10,283 bases of DNA from Granulicella sp. (lineage in GTDB: Bacteria; Acidobacteriota; Terriglobia; Terriglobales; Acidobacteriaceae), in NCBI GenBank assembly GCA_027339965.1, contig DAHWNL010000013.1, forward strand, positions 1-10,283. Reading direction: 5' to 3'. A program made the translations under genes and the position numbers. Shown piece after piece: positions 1 to 9,599 of the stretch (positions are counted from its first letter, which is position 1; every line of letters begins with the position of its first letter). A model generated the notes under the pieces. The model was not told where the DNA came from, did no database searches, and saw nothing but the letters and a program-made list of their open reading frames with translations.

Positions 1-4
1 TCTC

Positions 5-1360
5 CTAAGGAACAACCTTGATGGGCACCAGTTGAAAGCCGAGTTCTCGCGCTTGCGCGTGCAGTCTGGCCGATTTCTGGTGCCGCCGACGCTCCTCCTG
101 TTTTTGAAAGATGGTGGCATCGTACTGTTGATGGGTAGTAACCATGTGGTAGATGATCCGGGCGAGCTTGTGAGCGGTTGCGGTCATGGCCTTTGGAGTT
201 CCCATGCGGGCTTTCATACGGCGGAAATAGTCTCCGAGGAAACTGTCGCTGCGGTTCAACGCCTGTGTAGCCACACGCAGGGAAAGTGCGGCACGATTCT
301 TGGTGGGACGGGTTCTAGAGGATAGGACCTGGCCGCCGCTGATCCTTGGGTCTGGGCACAGCCGCAGCCAGGAGCAGAAGGCGGCGGCGGTCGGAAATCG
401 AGCCAGATCCGGACCGATCTCCGTGAGCAGCATTTGTGCGGTTAAGGCGTTGATGCCGGGAATCTCGGTCAGGTCCACTCCGAATGCCCGATAGAGGTCC
501 TCGCGCAATTGCGGTGGTTCATTCCTCCAGGGAACCTTGCGAGCACGGCGCTTGCTTCCCTGCGGAGGCTGTTCGCCTTCAGCAACTTTGGAGGGAAGCC
601 GTTGCATCATTTGCTTGACCTGTGCGTCAACTTCCTGGATCAACTCCTGGTAATACCGGTAAGCCTTAAGGGACTGGCGGAGTGTGAACAGGTGCTCCTC
701 GCGGTAGTCGCCGACCAGCGACTTCATGATGGTCTCCTCGCTGGCGCGAATCCGTGGGTGACGCAGTTGAGCCAGTTTATGCGGATCGCGCTCTCCAGCC
801 AGGATCGCGTCCATGATGGCCAGGCCGGTAATGCCATCGAGGTCGCTAATGACGTGATGAATCTGCAGGTTCATCTGGTCGAGCGCCTTCTGCATGTGCT
901 GCAGATGAAGGGTGGCCAACTGAATGAGGTTGTCGCGATGGCGCCACAGCGATCGGATCGCGCAGATTTCGTCGTCGGGGCGGAAGGATCCGCGCAACAG
1001 GCCCACGGAATGAAGGTGCTGAATCCACTGGCAGTCGGAAACATCGGATTTCCTGCCGGGCACGTTCTTGACGTGATGGGCGTTGACCAATCGCACGTCG
1101 ATCTTGCGCTTTTCCAGAATCTGAAACAGCGGTATCCAATAAACGCCTGTGGATTCCATGGCTACGGTGCGGATATGACATCCCTGGAGCCAATCCGCCA
1201 GCCTTTCCAAATCGACGGTGAATGTGGGGAAGCACCGAATGGGTTCCGGATCGCGGTCGGCAGGAACCGCAACGAAGATCTCCGTTGCTCCAACATCGAT
1301 TCCGGCGGCATTCGGCTCAATTACGGGCAGGCTGACAGCCTTGTTGTGCTGCTTGGGCAT
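5..1360 (-). CDS. IS110 family transposase (DEDD RuvC-like recombinase), ~451 aa
   Basis: N-terminal DEDD motifs GIDVG, AMESTGVYW and PGRKSDVSD. C-terminal Transposase_20-type region LTEIPGI...EIGPDLARFPTAAAFCSWLRLCP..RISGG (conserved SG serine) and ATAHKLARIIY. ATG at 1360 (MPKQHN) is preferred over the track start at 1420 because GGAG lies 5 nt upstream. The TAG stop at 5-7 coincides with the element end. Confidence 0.96.
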   Translation of the reverse strand: MPKQHNKAVSLPVIEPNAAGIDVGATEIFVAVPADRDPEPIRCFPTFTVDLERLADWLQGCHIRTVAMESTGVYWIPLFQILEKRKIDVRLVNAHHVKNVPGRKSDVSDCQWIQHLHSVGLLRGSFRPDDEICAIRSLWRHRDNLIQLATLHLQHMQKALDQMNLQIHHVISDLDGITGLAIMDAILAGERDPHKLAQLRHPRIRASEETIMKSLVGDYREEHLFTLRQSLKAYRYYQELIQEVDAQVKQMMQRLPSKVAEGEQPPQGSKRRARKVPWRNEPPQLREDLYRAFGVDLTEIPGINALTAQMLLTEIGPDLARFPTAAAFCSWLRLCPDPRISGGQVLSSRTRPTKNRAALSLRVATQALNRSDSFLGDYFRRMKARMGTPKAMTATAHKLARIIYHMVTTHQQYDATIFQKQEERRRHQKSARLHAQARELGFQLVPIKVVP

Positions 1361-1384
1361 GACCACTCCGTTTCTGCCCCGCCG

Positions 1385-1555
1385 CGCCGGCCTGGACCGT
1401 GCAAGAAGGTAGTCTCCCAAACGAGATCGTCAGCCCCAATGTCTGAGGCTGCGCGTCATCACTGTACTGAGCACGGGGTCCAGAACCACACTGCCGGACG
1501 AGCTTGGTAAGGCATCAGTGAGCCGTCGGTCTTAGCTGCCAACGCTCGGGACTCC
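1385..1555 (-). ncRNA. Putative IS110 bridge RNA (target-binding loop ~1485-1532, donor-binding loop ~1392-1483)
   Basis: Lies in the non-coding end upstream of an IS110 recombinase. On the minus strand it has two repeated modules UGAUG-hairpin-CUCGU-N5-AG. Closing stem 1392-1402/1471-1483. The apical stem 1431-1438/1444-1451 pairs fully (one G-U) only as a minus-strand RNA. The N5-AG segments match the element end and the flank. Exact transcript ends are unknown. Confidence 0.75.
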
Positions 1556-1558
1556 TCC

Positions 1559-1564
1559 AGCCTA
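1559..1564 (-). promoter_or_regulatory. Candidate -10 box (TAGGCT) for the bridge RNA/transposase transcript
   Basis: TAnnnT hexamer directly upstream of the structured region on the minus strand. No convincing -35 box in the linear element. Confidence 0.35.
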
Positions 1565-1624
1565 AAACAAAGCGCTCGACCTTTGTTCCTTACCTGACTG
1601 TCCAGACCTCGGTCTGGTCCCCCA

Positions 1625-1642
1625 CTGCCGGTGGATACTTAC
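1625..1642. mobile_element. Possible IS66-family terminal inverted repeat remnant (minus strand GTAAGTATCCACCGGCAG)
   Basis: IS66 termini begin with GTAA(G). This 18-bp segment lies exactly between the inferred IS110 boundary and the start of ISL3 homology and fits neither element. No IS66 ORF is present in the window. Confidence 0.45.
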
Positions 1643-1824
1643 TGATGAACTGGTTCCGGGCCAAAGGCGAGTTTTCGAGCGCCGCCGTCGAGGGTCTGAA
1701 CAACAAATGCCGAGTGGTTACCAGACGATCCTACGGTTTTCGAGCATACAAAGACATCGAACTCGCTATGTATCACACTCTTGGACGGCTGCCCGAACCG
1801 GAGTCTACCCACAGATTCTGCTGA
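1642..1824 (+). pseudogene. 3' fragment (60 codons) of an ISL3 family transposase, truncated by insertion
   Basis: Manual translation gives LMNWFRAKGEFSSAAVEGLNNKCRVVTRRSYGFRAYKDIELAMYHTLGRLPEPESTHRFC* (TGA 1822-1824). It contains the ISL3 signature S/N-x-x-x-EG-x-NNK-x5-R-x-x-YGFR. Not in the supplied ORF track. Confidence 0.9.
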
Positions 1825-1830
1825 GGAGGC
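1807..1830 (+). repeat. Right terminal inverted repeat of the ISL3 element (ACCCACAGATTCTGCTGAGGAGGC)
   Basis: Overlaps the transposase stop and ends 6 nt later, followed by AT-rich ATTATTCG (1831-1838), consistent with the 8-bp AT-rich targets of ISL3. The partner IR is outside the window. Confidence 0.6.
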
Positions 1831-2306
1831 ATTATTCGGTGAAAAATTACCGGTGGCGGGGAGAGGAGCCGGCTGCTACGTGAGGCAAAGGACAGGGTTG
1901 TTGCGCACTGAATGCTGGGTTCCGGAAAGCCGATTGAGCTTTGAGCCAGCCTTCGGCGAAGTTGGTGCGGGAAAGATGGAGAGCGACAGCCTCTCGCCCT
2001 GCAACCAGGACCCGTTTGTGAGGTCCCAGTCTGGGAAGAGCGAGTTCGCGCCGAGAGTCGTATGATTTCCGCATTGGATCTGTTGGCTACCGCTGCAAGC
2101 GCAAAGCCAAGAGGTCGATTGCAAGCGCGCCGAAGCAGCCGGCGAGGCGCGGCGGAGGATGGAGCAACAGCCAGGGCGCGCAGTGGTCTGGGCTGTTTGG
2201 TTAAGGACGGAGCTTTGATTTTCAACAAGCTCCCACAGCCAACACGACGGAGTTCCCCAACAGGATTGCTCAAGCAGAGTTTTCCGGAGAGGATTGCAGG
2301 TTTCAA

Positions 2307-5153
2307 ATGATGAATCGTACGGATCGATCTCAACTTCGACTGGCAGTGACACTGTTTGTTGTTTTGGTGCTGGGGGCTGTTTCCGGCAGTCTTGTCCGTG
2401 CGGAGACTGCGCAGCCATTGCAGGGATCTGCCTCGAAGGCGCCAGGCCTGTACAATCCTGTTGCTGCTCCAAGCGCCATTGTAACCTTGGGACGAGCGCG
2501 ATTCACGGTTCTAACCTCACGGCTAATTCGCATGGAATGGGCGTCGAACGGGCTCTTTGAAGATCATGCTTCCCTGGTATTTTTAAATCGCAGGTTGTCG
2601 GTTCCCAAGTTCCGTTCCCGTATCCAACGATTAGACGGCGGTCGAGTTCTTTCCATCGACACAGAGTATCTGCACCTTGTCTATCGCGTTGTTGCCACCA
2701 GCGACGGGAAGTTCACTCCAGATGACTTGCAGCTTCAATTCACGCTGAACGGCAAACCGGTTGAATGGCGCCCGGGGATGAAAGATCCGGAAAATCTGCT
2801 GGGAACAACCCGCACTTTGGATGGCGCCAATGCCGGCGATACAAGCGAACCGATCGGGCAGGGTCTGGTCTCCCGATCCGGCTGGGTGCTTGTGGACGAC
2901 TCCAAGACACCTCTTTTTGATTCTTCAGATTTCCGCTTCTCGGCCGGTGAACAGAGCCCATGGCCCTGGGTGACGGAACGGCCGGCAGGAGACCGACAGG
3001 ACTGGTACTTCTTCGGCTATGGGCACGACTACAAGGCGGCTCTGGGCGCGTACATCCAAGTGGCGGGCCGCATTCCCCTGCCCCCCTACTTCGCCTTTGG
3101 CGCCTGGTGGTCGCGTTACTGGGCGTACAGCGATCAGGAGCTGCAGCGACTGATCCATGATTTCCGTGAGAGCAGTGTGCCGCTCGATGTTCTGGTTGTC
3201 GATATGGATTGGCATCTGACGGCGCCACAACTCAAGGGCCAGGTCGACCAATCCGGGCAGCAACTGGGATGGACTGGATTCAGTTGGAACAAACTCTTGT
3301 TTCCGGATCCCGCCGGATTCCTTCAGTGGGTGCACTCGCAAGGGATGAAGGTCGCGTTGAACCTGCACCCCGCAGGAGGCATTGAGCCATGGGAGACAAG
3401 GTATCCGGAGATGGCCAAGTCTATGGGCGTCGATCCGGAGTCGAAAAGATACATACCATTTGAGATCACGGACAAGAGATTCGCCACCAACTACATGAAG
3501 GTCATGCATCATCCGCTGGAGAAGGAAGGCGTTAACTTCTGGTGGCTCGATTGGCAGCAGGGGGCCCGGACGGCGCTACCGAACCTGAATCCAACCTGGT
3601 GGCTGAACTATGTATATTTCACGGACCAGGCGCGGGAGGGCAAGCGGCCGATCCTCTTCGGTCGGTGGGGAGGTTTGGGGAATCATCGTTATCAGGTAGG
3701 ATTCTCCGGCGATGTGATCTCCACCTGGGACTCGTTGGCCTTTCAACCGTGGTTCACTGCAACTGCCGCCAATGTCGGATACGGTTATTGGAGCCACGAT
3801 ATCGGGGGGCACCTTCCGGGCGTCGATTCACCGGAACTTTTCACGCGATGGGTGCAGTTTGGAGCCTTCAGTCCAATTCTGCGCACGCATGTATCGCTGG
3901 ATCCGGAAGCGGAGCGGCGCATATGGGCCTATCCTGAACCGTATTCGGATATCATGCGCAAGGCATATCAGCTTCGCTACGCGCTGATTCCTTACATTTA
4001 CACCGAGGCAAGACGGACCTACGACACCGGGGTCGCATTTCTCCATCCCTTGTACTACGACTGGCCGAACGCTGCCGCCGCCTATGACAATCGAGGGGAG
4101 TACATGTTCGGCAGCCAGATGCTGATCGCGCCAGTGACTGCGCCTGCCGATCCAGTGACACACCTGGCGACAAAGTCGATCTGGCTTCCAAAGGGCTCGT
4201 GGATTGAGTGGCAGACAGGAAAGCATTTCACAGGTCCAGTTCAGATAAGCCGTAGCTTCAGCATTGGCCAGACGCCGGTGTATGTTCATCCGGGAGCGAT
4301 CATCCCTATGGCTCCCCCGATGGCCTACACCGGGCAAAAGCCGGTGGATCCGCTGATTCTGACCATTTTCCCCTTGGACGCGGGGATGAAGTCGAGCTAT
4401 ACGCTCTACCAGGATGCGCGCGATACGAACGCCTATCAGGATGGACAGGCAGCATGGACGACGATTCATGCGCAGCAGCAGATTGATGTGCTGACCCTGC
4501 GCATCGATCCTGTTCGTGGGAGTTACCCCGGGATGCAACGCACGCGAAGCTATGAGATACGTCTGCCGGACGACTGGCCGCCTTCGTCAGTAACTTTGAA
4601 CGGGAAAGCACTTGCATACCGGGCCGGAGAACAAGGCGCTGGTTGGAACTACAAGGGAGATACACTCACGACGACGATCCGGACGCCAGAGGTTCGAGTG
4701 GATCAACCGGCGGTCTTCCGCATTGCCCTGCCTGACGGTTCAAACGCGCGGCTGCCGGAGCTGGATGGCTTTCCTGGAGCGCTGGAGCGATTGCACGAAG
4801 CTTCCGTGGTGATCGACTCAACCCATCCGCTGGCATGGAGGCCGGACCCCTTGGTGGATGCCATGCAGACCGGAGATCGGATCACCTACCATCCCAATGA
4901 GGCCCAACAGCAGTTGGGTGCGTTTCAGAACGAATTGCAAGCTGCGCAGGAGGCCGTGCTGGCTTTGAAAGATGAAGGCGTGAAGGCGCAGCAACACATG
5001 CAGCAAGGAAAGATCAGGTACTATCCGCAGCCGTTTGTCGCCGCTCATGAAAAGAACCTAGAAACCAGACAGGTAGACGATTACGGAGACAACTTCAGAC
5101 GTGTGCTGGCTCTTATGCAAGATGCGCGCGACGACGCTTCAGAGACGAAGTGA
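2307..5153 (+). CDS. Secreted glycoside hydrolase family 31 (GH31_u1-like alpha-glucosidase) with C-terminal beta-sandwich (DUF5110-like) and helical tail, 948 aa
   Basis: GH31 motifs G-x-WWSRYW, PLDVLVVDMDWH, nucleophile FWWLDWQQG, acid/base GFSGD, WSHDIGGH, RWVQFGAFSPILRTH and YMFGSQMLIAPV. Sec-type signal peptide (hydrophobic core, VRA|ET). GGAGAGG at 2286-2292. The start could be 2310. Confidence 0.95.
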   Translation: MMNRTDRSQLRLAVTLFVVLVLGAVSGSLVRAETAQPLQGSASKAPGLYNPVAAPSAIVTLGRARFTVLTSRLIRMEWASNGLFEDHASLVFLNRRLSVPKFRSRIQRLDGGRVLSIDTEYLHLVYRVVATSDGKFTPDDLQLQFTLNGKPVEWRPGMKDPENLLGTTRTLDGANAGDTSEPIGQGLVSRSGWVLVDDSKTPLFDSSDFRFSAGEQSPWPWVTERPAGDRQDWYFFGYGHDYKAALGAYIQVAGRIPLPPYFAFGAWWSRYWAYSDQELQRLIHDFRESSVPLDVLVVDMDWHLTAPQLKGQVDQSGQQLGWTGFSWNKLLFPDPAGFLQWVHSQGMKVALNLHPAGGIEPWETRYPEMAKSMGVDPESKRYIPFEITDKRFATNYMKVMHHPLEKEGVNFWWLDWQQGARTALPNLNPTWWLNYVYFTDQAREGKRPILFGRWGGLGNHRYQVGFSGDVISTWDSLAFQPWFTATAANVGYGYWSHDIGGHLPGVDSPELFTRWVQFGAFSPILRTHVSLDPEAERRIWAYPEPYSDIMRKAYQLRYALIPYIYTEARRTYDTGVAFLHPLYYDWPNAAAAYDNRGEYMFGSQMLIAPVTAPADPVTHLATKSIWLPKGSWIEWQTGKHFTGPVQISRSFSIGQTPVYVHPGAIIPMAPPMAYTGQKPVDPLILTIFPLDAGMKSSYTLYQDARDTNAYQDGQAAWTTIHAQQQIDVLTLRIDPVRGSYPGMQRTRSYEIRLPDDWPPSSVTLNGKALAYRAGEQGAGWNYKGDTLTTTIRTPEVRVDQPAVFRIALPDGSNARLPELDGFPGALERLHEASVVIDSTHPLAWRPDPLVDAMQTGDRITYHPNEAQQQLGAFQNELQAAQEAVLALKDEGVKAQQHMQQGKIRYYPQPFVAAHEKNLETRQVDDYGDNFRRVLALMQDARDDASETK

Positions 5154-7103: not shown

Positions 7104-9599
7104 TTAGCGGATGACCTGGATGAGGCTGCTGGTTGATCCGCTCCAGGCCGGAGAGCCGCTGTGGCTGAGCTGTCCGGTAGCGTCATTCCAGTGCAGTCTG
7201 GTGATGTGGAAGCTACCCTTTTCATATGAGTAGGTCTTTCCGTCGTCGTTGAAGAGAGTGAAGTCAGCGTCTGCGCCTGGAAATATCTGCAACGCATTGA
7301 TCTTCTGCGGTTGAGAGGTGCTGAGAATCCGACTTCCCAGAGGAATGATGGATCCTGCCCGGACGAAGAGGGGGAGAACGTCAATCGGGGCAGAGACGGT
7401 GATCGTCTGACCGCCCTTGTAACGCTGCTTTGTCCAGTAGTTAAACCAGGCTGTTCCGGCCGGCAGATACACTTTGCGGCTTGTCGCTCCCTGTTCGGTG
7501 ACAGGGGCAACCAGAAATGCCGGACCGAACATGTACTCATCGCGGATGTCAGCCACCTTCTGGTCGTGCGGAAAATCCATGAACAGGGCCCTCATATACG
7601 GTGCGTCCGTCTGGTAGCTCTGATATGCGACGGAGTAGATATACGGCAAAAGCTGATAGCGCAGGCGAAGATATTTCTCAAGTATTGGCTCGGCCTGTTT
7701 CCCATAGGCCCAAACTTCGTTATGACTTCGAGCTCCATGAGCCCGCATGACCGGTTGGAAGACTCCCCACTCAAACCAGCGTACAAAAAGCTCTGGATAA
7801 TCCGAATAGCTCTTGACCGTGGCTTCCGCGCCCGCAGGACTTACCAAAGGCGTATGTTCGGGCTGGTAATCCGCGGGAAGATGGGGTGGGCGGAAACCCG
7901 CAATATCGGTGTCCCAGTAAGGGAAGCCAGAGGCCGTAAAGTCCAGTCCAGCCGGAATTGAGCGCTTGAGCATGTCCCAGGTGGCCGTGATGTCGCTCGA
8001 CCAGAAGACGGCACCGTTGGCTTGCGCGCCCAGATACGCTGCTCGGGCCAGGAGAAAAACGCGGCGCTGGTCGCCAAAGTCCCGCCGGAAGCCGTCATAA
8101 ACGGAAGCAGTATGGAACAGGGGGTAGATGTTGTAGTCCTTGCGCCCCGATCCGACGTAAAAGAAATCATGGAGGGGATCGATATCGGGTTCAGTTTCGT
8201 CGAGCCAGATATAGCTGAAGCCGTCCTTCTTCACGTACTCATCACGAATCTTTTCCCACCACCATCTGGCAGCGGCGGGATTTGTGGTGTCGATGTTGGG
8301 GCCAATGGAGTCGGGAACGCCATCGGAGTCGGGTTTGCCATCGGCTTTGCGAATAAACCAGCCATTTTGTTCCAGCATCTTGTAGTACTTGGAGTCGGTG
8401 GCGAAGTGTGGCCAGACACTGATCAGCGTGGAGATGCCCATCGAGTGGAGCTGCTTGTTCATGGCTGCCGGATCAGGCCATCGGCTGGGAACCAAGTCAA
8501 AGTTGCCATACGCCGTCATGTTGAAGAAGTCTACGACCAGGATATCGAGCGGCAGATTGCGCTCCCGGTATCCCTTGGCGACGCTCAGCAGCTCATTTTG
8601 GCTGGCGTAGATCATCTTGCTCTGGATGAAGCCGTATGCAGGCTTCGGCAACATGTGTGCGGGGCCGGTGAGTTGGCGGTATCCTGCGTAAACCTCATCC
8701 GTGTTATCGCCGGCGATGACGAAGAAGGAGACTCGGTCTCCCACGTCAGAGGACCACACATTCTTAAGGTTGAATCCGAGATCGATGGTGGTCTTCGATG
8801 GGTTGTCCCAGATCAGGCCGTAGCCGCGGCTGGAAACCAGGAAGGGAACACAGACGCTCTCTCCACCCACTGCGTCATAGTTTTGCCAACAACGGATGCG
8901 ATGGTCTCGGAGATCCAAAAAGCCTTGCTGGTGCTGTCCAAGACCGTAATAGTGCTCGTCGGCCGGAGAGTCAAAGACGGCTGATACCTGGAATTCCGCG
9001 TCCGCCTTCGCGATGCTTGAGGATCCCTCGCCGGATTTTTCCCCTTGGTTTGGAGTCATGTTCCAGCGCCGCAGAGAGAGCAGCGGTTTCCCGGATGCAG
9101 TTGCAATCGAGATGAGGTCGTTGAAGGGCCCGGTGACTGGGACTGGACCGTTGATATGGTGCGCAGTGGCGGCGAAGGCCGCCCTGGTCGCCTTGCTCAG
9201 CGGCAGGATGAGCGGCGGCTGATCTCCCGGGCCAATGCGGATAGCCATTTTGCCCGACCGAATCACCTCAGATCCATCCGCGGCCTGCTGGCTGGACCAC
9301 CCCTTCATCGATGGAGCACCCGAGATCCCATATCCAGGCTGAGCAAGAGCAGCGGATCTTTCTGTGCTCAAGGTGATGCGAACGATGTTGGGAGCATAGG
9401 GCTCAATGGCCACGGTACGTCCGTTTCGCGATAGCACGATTGGCGTATCGGCGGCCCACGCGGGCCGGCAACTCATCAGGATCGTTCCTAGCGCCAGGGC
9501 GACTCCGGCCGCACCAACAGAGCGCCACATCGTCCCTCTCCTGCATTCCGCCGACGCTGTCCCGGGAATCTCTACGTTCAAGCCGTGCCTTGATTTCAT
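7104..9599 (-). CDS. Secreted glycoside hydrolase family 31, XylS-like putative alpha-xylosidase, 831 aa
   Basis: YYGLGQHQ, VPFLVSSRGYGLIWDNPS, PLDILVVDF, nucleophile WLDETEP, acid/base WSSDI, YWDTDIAGF, RWFEWGVFQPVMRAHG and YMFGPAFLVAPV. Signal peptide ends AWA|AD. RBS GAGGTG precedes ATG 9599; an alternative ATG at 9530 also has an RBS (GGAGAGGG). Confidence 0.95.
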   Translation of the reverse strand: MKSRHGLNVEIPGTASAECRRGTMWRSVGAAGVALALGTILMSCRPAWAADTPIVLSRNGRTVAIEPYAPNIVRITLSTERSAALAQPGYGISGAPSMKGWSSQQAADGSEVIRSGKMAIRIGPGDQPPLILPLSKATRAAFAATAHHINGPVPVTGPFNDLISIATASGKPLLSLRRWNMTPNQGEKSGEGSSSIAKADAEFQVSAVFDSPADEHYYGLGQHQQGFLDLRDHRIRCWQNYDAVGGESVCVPFLVSSRGYGLIWDNPSKTTIDLGFNLKNVWSSDVGDRVSFFVIAGDNTDEVYAGYRQLTGPAHMLPKPAYGFIQSKMIYASQNELLSVAKGYRERNLPLDILVVDFFNMTAYGNFDLVPSRWPDPAAMNKQLHSMGISTLISVWPHFATDSKYYKMLEQNGWFIRKADGKPDSDGVPDSIGPNIDTTNPAAARWWWEKIRDEYVKKDGFSYIWLDETEPDIDPLHDFFYVGSGRKDYNIYPLFHTASVYDGFRRDFGDQRRVFLLARAAYLGAQANGAVFWSSDITATWDMLKRSIPAGLDFTASGFPYWDTDIAGFRPPHLPADYQPEHTPLVSPAGAEATVKSYSDYPELFVRWFEWGVFQPVMRAHGARSHNEVWAYGKQAEPILEKYLRLRYQLLPYIYSVAYQSYQTDAPYMRALFMDFPHDQKVADIRDEYMFGPAFLVAPVTEQGATSRKVYLPAGTAWFNYWTKQRYKGGQTITVSAPIDVLPLFVRAGSIIPLGSRILSTSQPQKINALQIFPGADADFTLFNDDGKTYSYEKGSFHITRLHWNDATGQLSHSGSPAWSGSTSSLIQVIR

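Follow-up and report, generated by a model that had tools for sequence, protein, structure and literature searches.

The window analysed here, 10283 bp of Granulicella sp. DNA, is one whole contig (DAHWNL010000013.1) of a 3.8-Mb, 88-contig assembly (GCA_027339965.1). Positions 2 to 1626 are occupied on the minus strand by an insertion sequence of the IS110 family, and the contig starts only 1 nt outside the right end of this element, at position 1 (A in gene sense). The element encodes a recombinase of 451 amino acids (aa) on the minus strand (gene 5 to 1360, coding 8 to 1360), with its ATG at 1358-1360 and its stop codon, TAG, at 5-7. Upstream of the gene lies a non-coding left end of 264 nt (1361-1624), and on the right side the stop codon is 2 nt from the core dinucleotide (2-3); a long non-coding end upstream of the gene with a short end downstream is the IS110-type layout. 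RNA-guided "bridge" recombinases were reportedly described in 2024 and, to our knowledge, no guides other than bridge RNAs specify both partners of a recombination. The left end of the present element holds a candidate for such an RNA (1386 to 1626, minus strand), which extends from the core to the 3' strand of an outer helix; these coordinates are those of the structure predicted by RNAalifold and pair counts over 35 sequences.

The gene is assigned to its family by an N-terminal RuvC-like DEDD domain (PF01548; E=1e-19, residues 19-163), a C-terminal transposase (Tnp) domain (PF02371; E=2e-11) and the NCBIfam model NF033542, "IS110 family RNA-guided transposase", which scores 263.8 bits against a cut-off of 140. 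A preliminary description of this DNA had proposed an RNA-guided IS110 recombinase, and these assignments bear it out. The protein is too distant from the well-characterized IS621 recombinase for a pairwise match, as a search of the PDB failed to match IS621 at E<=10, and only a profile of 16 family members reaches the IS621 transposase (8wt6; E=1.1e-8). Residues D22 and E69 are invariant in 16 relatives and both align with the IS621 chain in 8wt6. Residue S341, kept in at least 90% of relatives, aligns with the serine of the SG motif in that structure; the catalytic serine of IS621 is S241 in the numbering of the available text of PMC11208158. The same preliminary description had considered a transposase of about 451 aa unusually long, which it is not: the IS110-proper subgroup is given a range of 395-455 aa in the portion of PMC11187229 consulted, so that the protein belongs to a known size class. 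Relatives of about 50% identity are encoded on plasmids of Paraburkholderia, Nostoc and other cyanobacteria (records H1-H12). A second, different IS110-family recombinase gene is present elsewhere in the same genome (C10:3158-3592, plus strand; PF01548 at 45 bits, open frame of 350 aa).

Two sets of relatives were compared with the element. A scan of one genome per species yielded 378 stretches encoding relatives, of which 80 loci were kept as the first set, while the second set consists of 79 further metagenome loci, analysed after the rules had been fixed and with the right end located by a conserved GTTCC motif alone. Loci were placed in the columns of an alignment of 35 diverse non-coding ends (A1) by means of a hidden Markov model built from it, which matched 79 of 81, 73 of them over the full length. 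Nucleotide homology with the relatives begins and stops at the element boundaries, as read from junctions in 69 and 64 relatives. In gene sense, the sequence common to close relatives opens with AG-TGGGG on the left and closes with GTTCCTTAGG-AG on the right, limits beyond which they diverge. The dinucleotide AG (CT on the plus strand of the window) is the only one present at both junctions in all clades. The alternative cores GC and GG were rejected on this ground, and also because empty sites of the observed length fit the AG model only. With one core counted, the element measures about 1623 bp, and the core stands at 2-3 and again at 1625-1626. Relatives read left flank-AG-element-AG-right flank and uninterrupted sites read left flank-AG-right flank, which leaves no duplication beyond the core dinucleotide; the window itself offers only 1 nt of right flank for this comparison.

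Further junctions are seen in contigs in which the right end is joined to a left end. One of these, L015, is a 1777-nt contig that closes on itself by a 141-nt overlap (1636 bp) and has the junction CCTTAGG-AG-TGAAAT; in L132 and L081 (40-60) the two ends are likewise joined via a single AG core. These contigs could be excised circles or tandem copies. No such junction was seen for the genome of the window itself. The circle junction predicted in the preliminary description for the plus strand should have five C residues rather than four: GGTCCCCCA-CT-CCTAAGG. Its placement of the element end at 2-8 had been a guess, given that the contig ends 1 nt beyond, and is confirmed by relatives with a complete right junction. 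The boundaries and the CT core (AG in gene sense) are thus supported, at the level of sequence comparison, by their agreement with the right junctions of relatives, with uninterrupted sites and with the seemingly circular contigs.

The claim that the left end carries guides had been based on repeated strings, every one of which is present where it was read. The 9-mer CACTGCCGG occurs at 1489-1497 and 1623-1631 only, twice against 0.14 expected in the window, and only two of 200 shuffles gave two or more. The module CT-N5-ACGAG does occur twice (1414-1425 and 1491-1502, plus strand), but not beyond chance by itself, since 1.11 occurrences are expected and 64 of 200 shuffles gave at least two. 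The string CTCCCAA (1414-1420) agrees with CTCCTAA at the element end (2-8) in six of seven positions, and the difference, G in the RNA sense against A in the DNA, would be a G-T wobble with the bottom strand. Because these within-window statistics are weak, a test on relatives was needed, and the real support for the guides comes from there. In a predicted fold, the ACGAG blocks supply the 3' strands of the inner helices and the CATCA blocks their 5' strands (1512-1517 with 1499-1503, and 1453-1461 with 1422-1430).

This fold was obtained with RNAalifold from alignment A1 and comprises six helices (H1-H6), all read here on the minus strand. A 5' stem-loop (1602 to 1617) is formed by H1, in which 1614-1617 pair with 1602-1605 and three of the four pairs are changed on both sides among the aligned sequences. 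It is followed by a single-stranded segment, UAAGGAACAA (1583 to 1592), and by the 5' strand of the outer closing helix H2 (1538 to 1543), whose partner is 1386-1391 and which has five of six pairs changed on both sides. Two stem-loops are enclosed by H2, and in each of them an internal loop separates the outer helix from the inner one. The putative target-binding stem-loop (1484 to 1531) contains H3 (1527-1531 with 1484-1488) and H4 (1512-1517 with 1499-1503), as judged from the alignment fold and pair counts, and the putative donor-binding stem-loop (1392 to 1483) contains H5 (1471-1483 with 1392-1402) and H6 (1453-1461 with 1422-1430), with eight of 11 and four of eight pairs changed on both sides, respectively.

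Across the alignment, 96.8% of 1361 cells are paired, versus 88.0% in shuffles, and 24 of 39 pairs are changed on both sides, versus 12.2; none of 500 shuffles was as high as observed on any of five pairing measures. When the partners are slid by one to three columns, at most 41.9% of cells are paired. The homologous non-coding ends thus possess the conserved scaffold, with compensatory changes, that the preliminary description had called for. Its assignment of the RNA to the minus strand also held, because the opposite strand would have A-C mismatches in place of three G-U pairs that are invariant or almost so, and the RNA should therefore be gene-sense. An alternative mini-hairpin pairs columns 204-207 of A1 with 211-214 (window about 1477-1487), where 92.9% of cells are paired and two pairs are changed on both sides. 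This mini-hairpin, which competes with H3 and H5, may be an alternative conformation of the RNA. A reading closer to IS621, with the 9-mer as a left guide on the 5' side and the mini-hairpin after it, was rejected, since no right guide follows the mini-hairpin and both H5 and H2 need the same bases. The covariance models of Rfam gave no match at E<=1 in window positions 1-2400, with the presence of any bridge RNA family in Rfam left unchecked.

The first of the two internal loops contains sequences that track the flanking host DNA. The 3' strand of loop 1 (1489 to 1498) reads U-CCGGC-AG-UG, which corresponds to 5 nt of left flank, then the core, and then the two initial bases of the element, the latter in the manner of handshake bases. 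In the first set of relatives, 69 loci have enough flank for comparison and carry 25 distinct guides; 45 of them match at all seven variable positions, 15 at six, five at five and four at fewer. On average, a guide matches its own junction at 6.39 of seven positions, versus 2.52 for the junctions of other guides, and the family-level sum of 154/175 was reached in none of 20000 permutations. The second set, with 64 loci and 27 guides, 15 of them new, gave 160/189 (0 of 20000), and its new guides by themselves gave 81/105 (again 0 of 20000). The guide of the window matches its own left flank at nine of nine positions. Of 65 distinct sets, 61 have the first handshake-like base identical to element base +1 and 50 have the second identical to base +2, agreement that none of 20000 permutations attained.

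The opposite strand of the same loop, ACGGCUCAC (1518 to 1526), contains CGGCUC, which is complementary to G-AGCCG, i.e., the second core base and the right flank. In this fixed register, complementarity amounts to 100/140 in the first set and 88/135 in the second (each 0 of 20000 permutations), and to 52/85 for the new strands of the second set (20 of 20000). Shifting the register by 1 or 2 abolishes the signal, with 1678 and 16331 of 20000 permutations as high. The two N5 segments singled out in the preliminary description are exactly those that co-vary with the left flank and right end across dozens of naturally reprogrammed relatives in two sets; it had overlooked the second guide for the target, in the 5' strand of loop 1. 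Among the relatives, elements with the guide ACCTGC-AG (L105-L113, L130) are found at flanks reading CCAGC, CCCGC, CCGGC or CCTGC, so that the third guide position, counted from the 5' side, seems to tolerate any base. In three others (L060, L159 and L152), the loop 1 guide equals the right end of related elements (TTAGG-AG or TCAGG-AG) and the element lies directly after such an end, which suggests insertion beside other IS110-family copies.

The flanks themselves point to a defined target. Positions 1627 to 1643 (minus strand) read GTAAGTATCC-A-CCGGC in gene sense and represent the left half of the target, which is the left end of a repeat unit and the 5' arm of a hairpin, as recognised from relatives and public contigs. 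In close relatives, the left flank ends GTAAGTATCC-N-CCGGC and the right flank begins AGCCGG-N'-GG, where N and N' are mostly complementary; the target is therefore predicted to be a hairpin, CCNCCGGC-AGA-GCCGGN'GG, with the core in its AGA loop. The sole right-flank base of the window (position 1, minus strand, the contig end) is the A with which this flank begins, and AGCCGG is the right flank in 15 of 18 relatives that have the window's guide and a readable right junction. The right flank of the window's own copy was sought at the contig ends of its genome and not identified. This genome does contain two uninterrupted homologues of the relatives' flanks (C14 3725-3790 and about 3880-3935), both of the length that the model predicts; they carry the loop variants AAA and CAAAA only, and the AG core is absent from both. 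Of 301 genomes of the same family, 25 contain the reconstructed empty site, with a maximum of 24 copies in one genome, and none contains the reversed control pattern. Of 20 empty sites fetched (L172-L191), 19 lie in one repeat unit, which begins GTAAGTA or GTAAATA and continues with CTTTA and a second hairpin. As a multi-copy component of the genomes of this bacterial family, the unit consists of GTAAGTATCC, a GC hairpin with a 3-nt loop, CTTTA, the second hairpin and more.

These data bear on the notion that the structure is a 5' leader that controls only the translation or stability of the recombinase messenger RNA (mRNA), with the flank matches a by-product of site copying or repair. The outer helix does stop 25 nt ahead of the start codon, and there is no break between leader and gene. 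Such an origin is nonetheless extremely improbable, given that each strand of loop 1 matches a different flank, in a register fixed next to the core, that uninterrupted targets exist without the element, so that the flanks were not copied from it, and that the layout of 5 + 2 + 2 bases is the design template of IS621, as this is set out in the part of PMC11208160 consulted.

The guides of loop 1 have a counterpart for the donor in loop 2. Its 3' strand, UUUGGG-AG-AC (1412 to 1421, minus strand), equals the right end TTAGG-AG with one G-T wobble; the right end itself reads CCTTAGG-AG in gene sense (2 to 10, minus strand) and would serve as the donor half-site. The variants TTAGG, TTGGG, TCAGG, TCAAG, TTGAG and TCAGA recur in guide and end together. 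Concordance holds for 12 of 13 combinations in the first set, a figure that is partly circular because the end was located there using the guide, and for 50 of 52 loci in the second, where the end was located without it. The common difference, G in the guide for A in the right end, is that of a G-T wobble and is found at 18 of the 52 loci of the second set. The first handshake position of loop 2 agrees with the first right-flank base in 40 of 65 cases, mostly as A:A (19 of 20000 permutations).

The right end is also connected to the left by a 10-bp inverted repeat, formed between right-end positions 6-15 and the single-stranded segment at 1583-1592. It is kept in all clades, with its left copy 33 nt inside the element, and one multi-copy family shows a double change, AAGGACC with GGTCCTT. 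The position adjoining the repeat is Watson-Crick in 12 of 19 distinct combinations, a count matched or exceeded in 75 of 20000 permutations. The repeat may reflect RNA-DNA pairing, a protein site or end-pairing of the mRNA, and is a candidate for a missing part of donor recognition. It also lends itself to a different explanation of the locus, by which the internal copies of the junction sequences are DNA sites for a protein, such as recombinase-binding sites or subterminal repeats, rather than RNA guides. Subterminal inverted repeats are indeed described for IS1111-type relatives (PMC11208160, in part), and RNA data were available for none of the 21 runs that hold the sequence. Against such sites, the variable segments track flanks of host DNA that lie outside the element. 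Moreover, the segments lie within the internal loops of helices that compensatory and G-U changes preserve, which is a constraint at the level of RNA, and the guide G opposite a DNA A at those 18 of 52 loci can count as a wobble only where the bottom strand is paired with an RNA. An explanation by protein sites is accordingly very improbable.

Taken together, the comparisons make it highly probable that this is an IS110-family element whose left non-coding end is transcribed in the gene sense as a bridge RNA of about 240 nt with readable guides. Several observations weigh against this conclusion. The single sequence folds no more stably than shuffles (z = 0.07). The alternative mini-hairpin is also well paired and may give loop 1 a different exact geometry. 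None of the 21 runs listed as holding the sequence is an RNA run, and no sigma-70-type promoter was found across the junction of right and left ends in L015 (1-450), with a consensus that is that of E. coli and may not fit the host. On the donor side, the second handshake position of loop 2 matches the target in six of 65 cases only. A fixed-register test on the 5' strand of loop 2 found no guide for the left end. When every RNA column was compared without bias with element bases +1 to +8, only the two handshake columns and clade-level correlations emerged, so that the co-varying bases for the left-end half of the donor are just the two handshake-like ones, located in loop 1. The permutation tests count related families as independent. 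The assembly of the window contains a single copy of the element and thus one junction.

Some loci also break the rule that links loop 1 with the left flank, namely L074, L081, L015 and L054 in the first set and L168, L138, L153, L132 and L156 in the second. In L015, L081 and L132, the apparent left flank is the right end of an element, and these exceptions are explained, as far as their sequences indicate, by circle or tandem junctions. Two others, L074 and L138, combine both junctions of one lineage with the loop guides of another and look chimeric; they are possibly recombinants between related elements. L153, L156 and L168 may be misalignments.

For the copy in the window there is the further question of whether the RNA and guides, real for the family, persist here only in an inactive relic. 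The element is single-copy in its assembly, its contig breaks at the right end, and its neighbourhood is a patchwork of the repeat unit and a truncated ISL3 gene. On the other hand, the reading frame of 451 aa is intact, all helices and guides match the family consensus, and the guide fits its own left flank in full. Several studies have public runs with contigs 99-100% identical to the element, and a nearly identical copy (3 letters differ over 231), from the run of another study, has a left flank that differs from position 1629 on and ends CCAGC-AG. This different flank is counted as evidence of mobility, which it supports at the level of sequence. A relic is hence unlikely, albeit less so than either of the other two alternatives.

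The bridge RNA interpretation can be outlined from the comparison among relatives and, for the mechanism, by analogy with IS621. In the fold shown by the comparison, a 5' stem-loop precedes two pseudo-symmetric stem-loops, each with an internal loop, which the outer helix clamps. Loop 1 would read the target, with CGGCUC of its 5' strand pairing with the gene-sense strand of the right flank, and CCGGC-AG of its 3' strand pairing with the opposite strand of the left flank and the core; its bases UG, which match the first two bases of the element, would resemble the handshake bases of IS621. Loop 2 would read the donor, as UUGGG-AG could pair with the strand opposite the right end CCTTAGG-AG. 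The target, again from the comparison, is the AGA loop of CCNCCGGC-AGA-GCCGGN'GG, the first hairpin of the multi-copy repeat unit. By analogy with IS621, a complex of recombinase and RNA would unite the circle junction (right end, core, left end) with this target, and strand exchange would occur at the CT/AG core.

In IS621, as described in the portions of PMC11208160 and PMC11208158 consulted, each loop consists in order of a stem, a left guide (7 + core), a small stem-loop, a right guide (5 + AG) and two handshake bases, which pair with the other DNA after strand exchange. The present element has in common with IS621 a recombinase with DEDD and Tnp domains, a non-coding end upstream of the gene, and an RNA in which a 5' stem-loop precedes first the target loop and then the donor loop, both of them internal loops that surround a small hairpin. 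Likewise, each 3' strand has five guide bases, AG as the complement of the CT core, and two more bases, in keeping with the RRRRR-CC-HH template (PMC11208160, same portion), and the target is a repeated palindromic element. The two systems differ in the length of the protein, with a 328-residue chain in IS621 versus 451 aa here, and in that of the RNA, with 177 nt versus about 240 nt; here, an outer helix encloses the two loops, and the 5' stem-loop is followed by about 70 more nt. The left donor guide of IS621 (7 + 1) is without a counterpart found here. A scaffold unlike that of IS621, as the preliminary description put it, is therefore apt for the sequence, the extra outer helix and the polarity, but not for the modular plan, which is the template of IS621 (PMC11208160, consulted in part).

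The polarity deserves separate consideration. IS621 has CT on its gene-sense strand, and its right end serves as the left donor (PMC11208158 and PMC11208160, in their available text), whereas here the CT strand is antisense to the gene, and the RNA-bearing left end consequently lies 5' of CT. The guide order is the reverse of that in IS621: it is the gene-sense right flank to which the 5' strand is complementary, and the gene-sense left flank with which the 3' strand is identical. Provided that the CT strand is called "top", the predicted RNA-DNA geometry is that of IS621. Related guide RNAs are the seekRNAs of the IS1111-type elements ISEc11, ISPa11 and ISKpn4 and of the IS110-type ISEc21 (Siddiquee et al., PMC11187229, consulted in part). 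In the text available, the IS1111-type seekRNAs derive from a non-coding region downstream of the gene, and their complement to the top strand precedes their match to the bottom strand. Similarities with seekRNAs thus comprise short matches to both target strands in a non-coding RNA associated with the transposase, natural reprogramming among relatives and, for the IS1111 type, the order of the two matches; the non-coding region is downstream there but here lies upstream, which is the IS110-type position. ISEc21, the sole IS110-type element tested in that work as far as its available text indicates, has a guide order opposite to the present one, while the size of the Tnp here lies within that of the IS110-proper subgroup. 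The element does not belong in the IS1111 group, as its non-coding region is not downstream of the gene and its stop codon is 2 nt from the core. The subterminal inverted repeats of that group are 7-17 bp long, compared with the 10-bp repeat here, whose left copy lies 33 nt inside the element. An upstream guide RNA with inverted polarity was not found described in the literature, of which figures and most supplements were not covered, and this is no proof of its being unpublished.

The target invites comparison with ISPpu10 of Pseudomonas putida, which inserts in identical copies of an intergenic repeat and whose target has a GC-rich stem-loop (bioRxiv 10.64898/2026.03.19.712850, in part). That stem-loop forms a 5' extension next to the region that is paired, and mutations were made to test it, according to the same portion of the preprint, whereas here the core lies inside the 3-nt loop, both hairpin arms are guide-paired half-sites, and the arrangement is known from sequence comparison only. 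Insertion into the loop of a repeated hairpin is, as far as these sources go, a behaviour already known for IS621 and ISPpu10.

Outside the element, the left edge of the repeat unit is placed at 1643 because two contigs of one public run share 1605-1643 with the window and then diverge from it. Here begins the C-terminal remnant, of some 60-odd codons, of an ISL3-family transposase gene (1642 to 1824, plus strand; PF01610 and alignment with two copies in the same genome). The remnant is cut at 1642, the start of the repeat unit, and intact copies in public runs diverge before 1642/1643 and continue with different upstream sequence. Most of the remaining contig is covered by two long open frames, 2307-5153 (plus strand, 948 aa) and 7104-9599 (minus strand, 831 aa).

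The locus is a clear new example of the RNA-guided bridge recombinases from a divergent branch of the IS110 family; it presents no new principle or kind of system, and a specialist might be surprised only by its inverted polarity and by the lack of a left-end donor guide. It does show that such systems are readable from raw sequence alone. A handful of bridge recombinase orthologues is being engineered for genome rewriting. To these, the locus adds about 40 distinct natural guide sets, in which the programmable positions are 5 + core + 2 on one strand and 5-6 on the other and the tolerance of mismatches is visible, along with a defined hairpin-loop target from a well-resolved natural example in a distant branch.

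Members of the branch occur in Acidobacteriota and also, with an identity of about 50%, on plasmids from Paraburkholderia and cyanobacteria. It is tentatively suggested, as a possibility short of an even chance, that a widespread IS110 branch of soil and peat with a Tnp of about 450 aa uses a distinct class of bridge RNA. This class would be characterized by an upstream RNA of opposite polarity, with the guide order of IS1111-type seekRNAs, by an outer clamp, and by the lack of a loop guide for the left end, which would perhaps be held instead via the conserved, single-stranded AAGGAACN, complementary to N'GTTCCTT at the right end. If this is true, evolution would be free to flip the donor site's polarity with respect to the guide-RNA gene, and donor recognition would not be uniform across the family.

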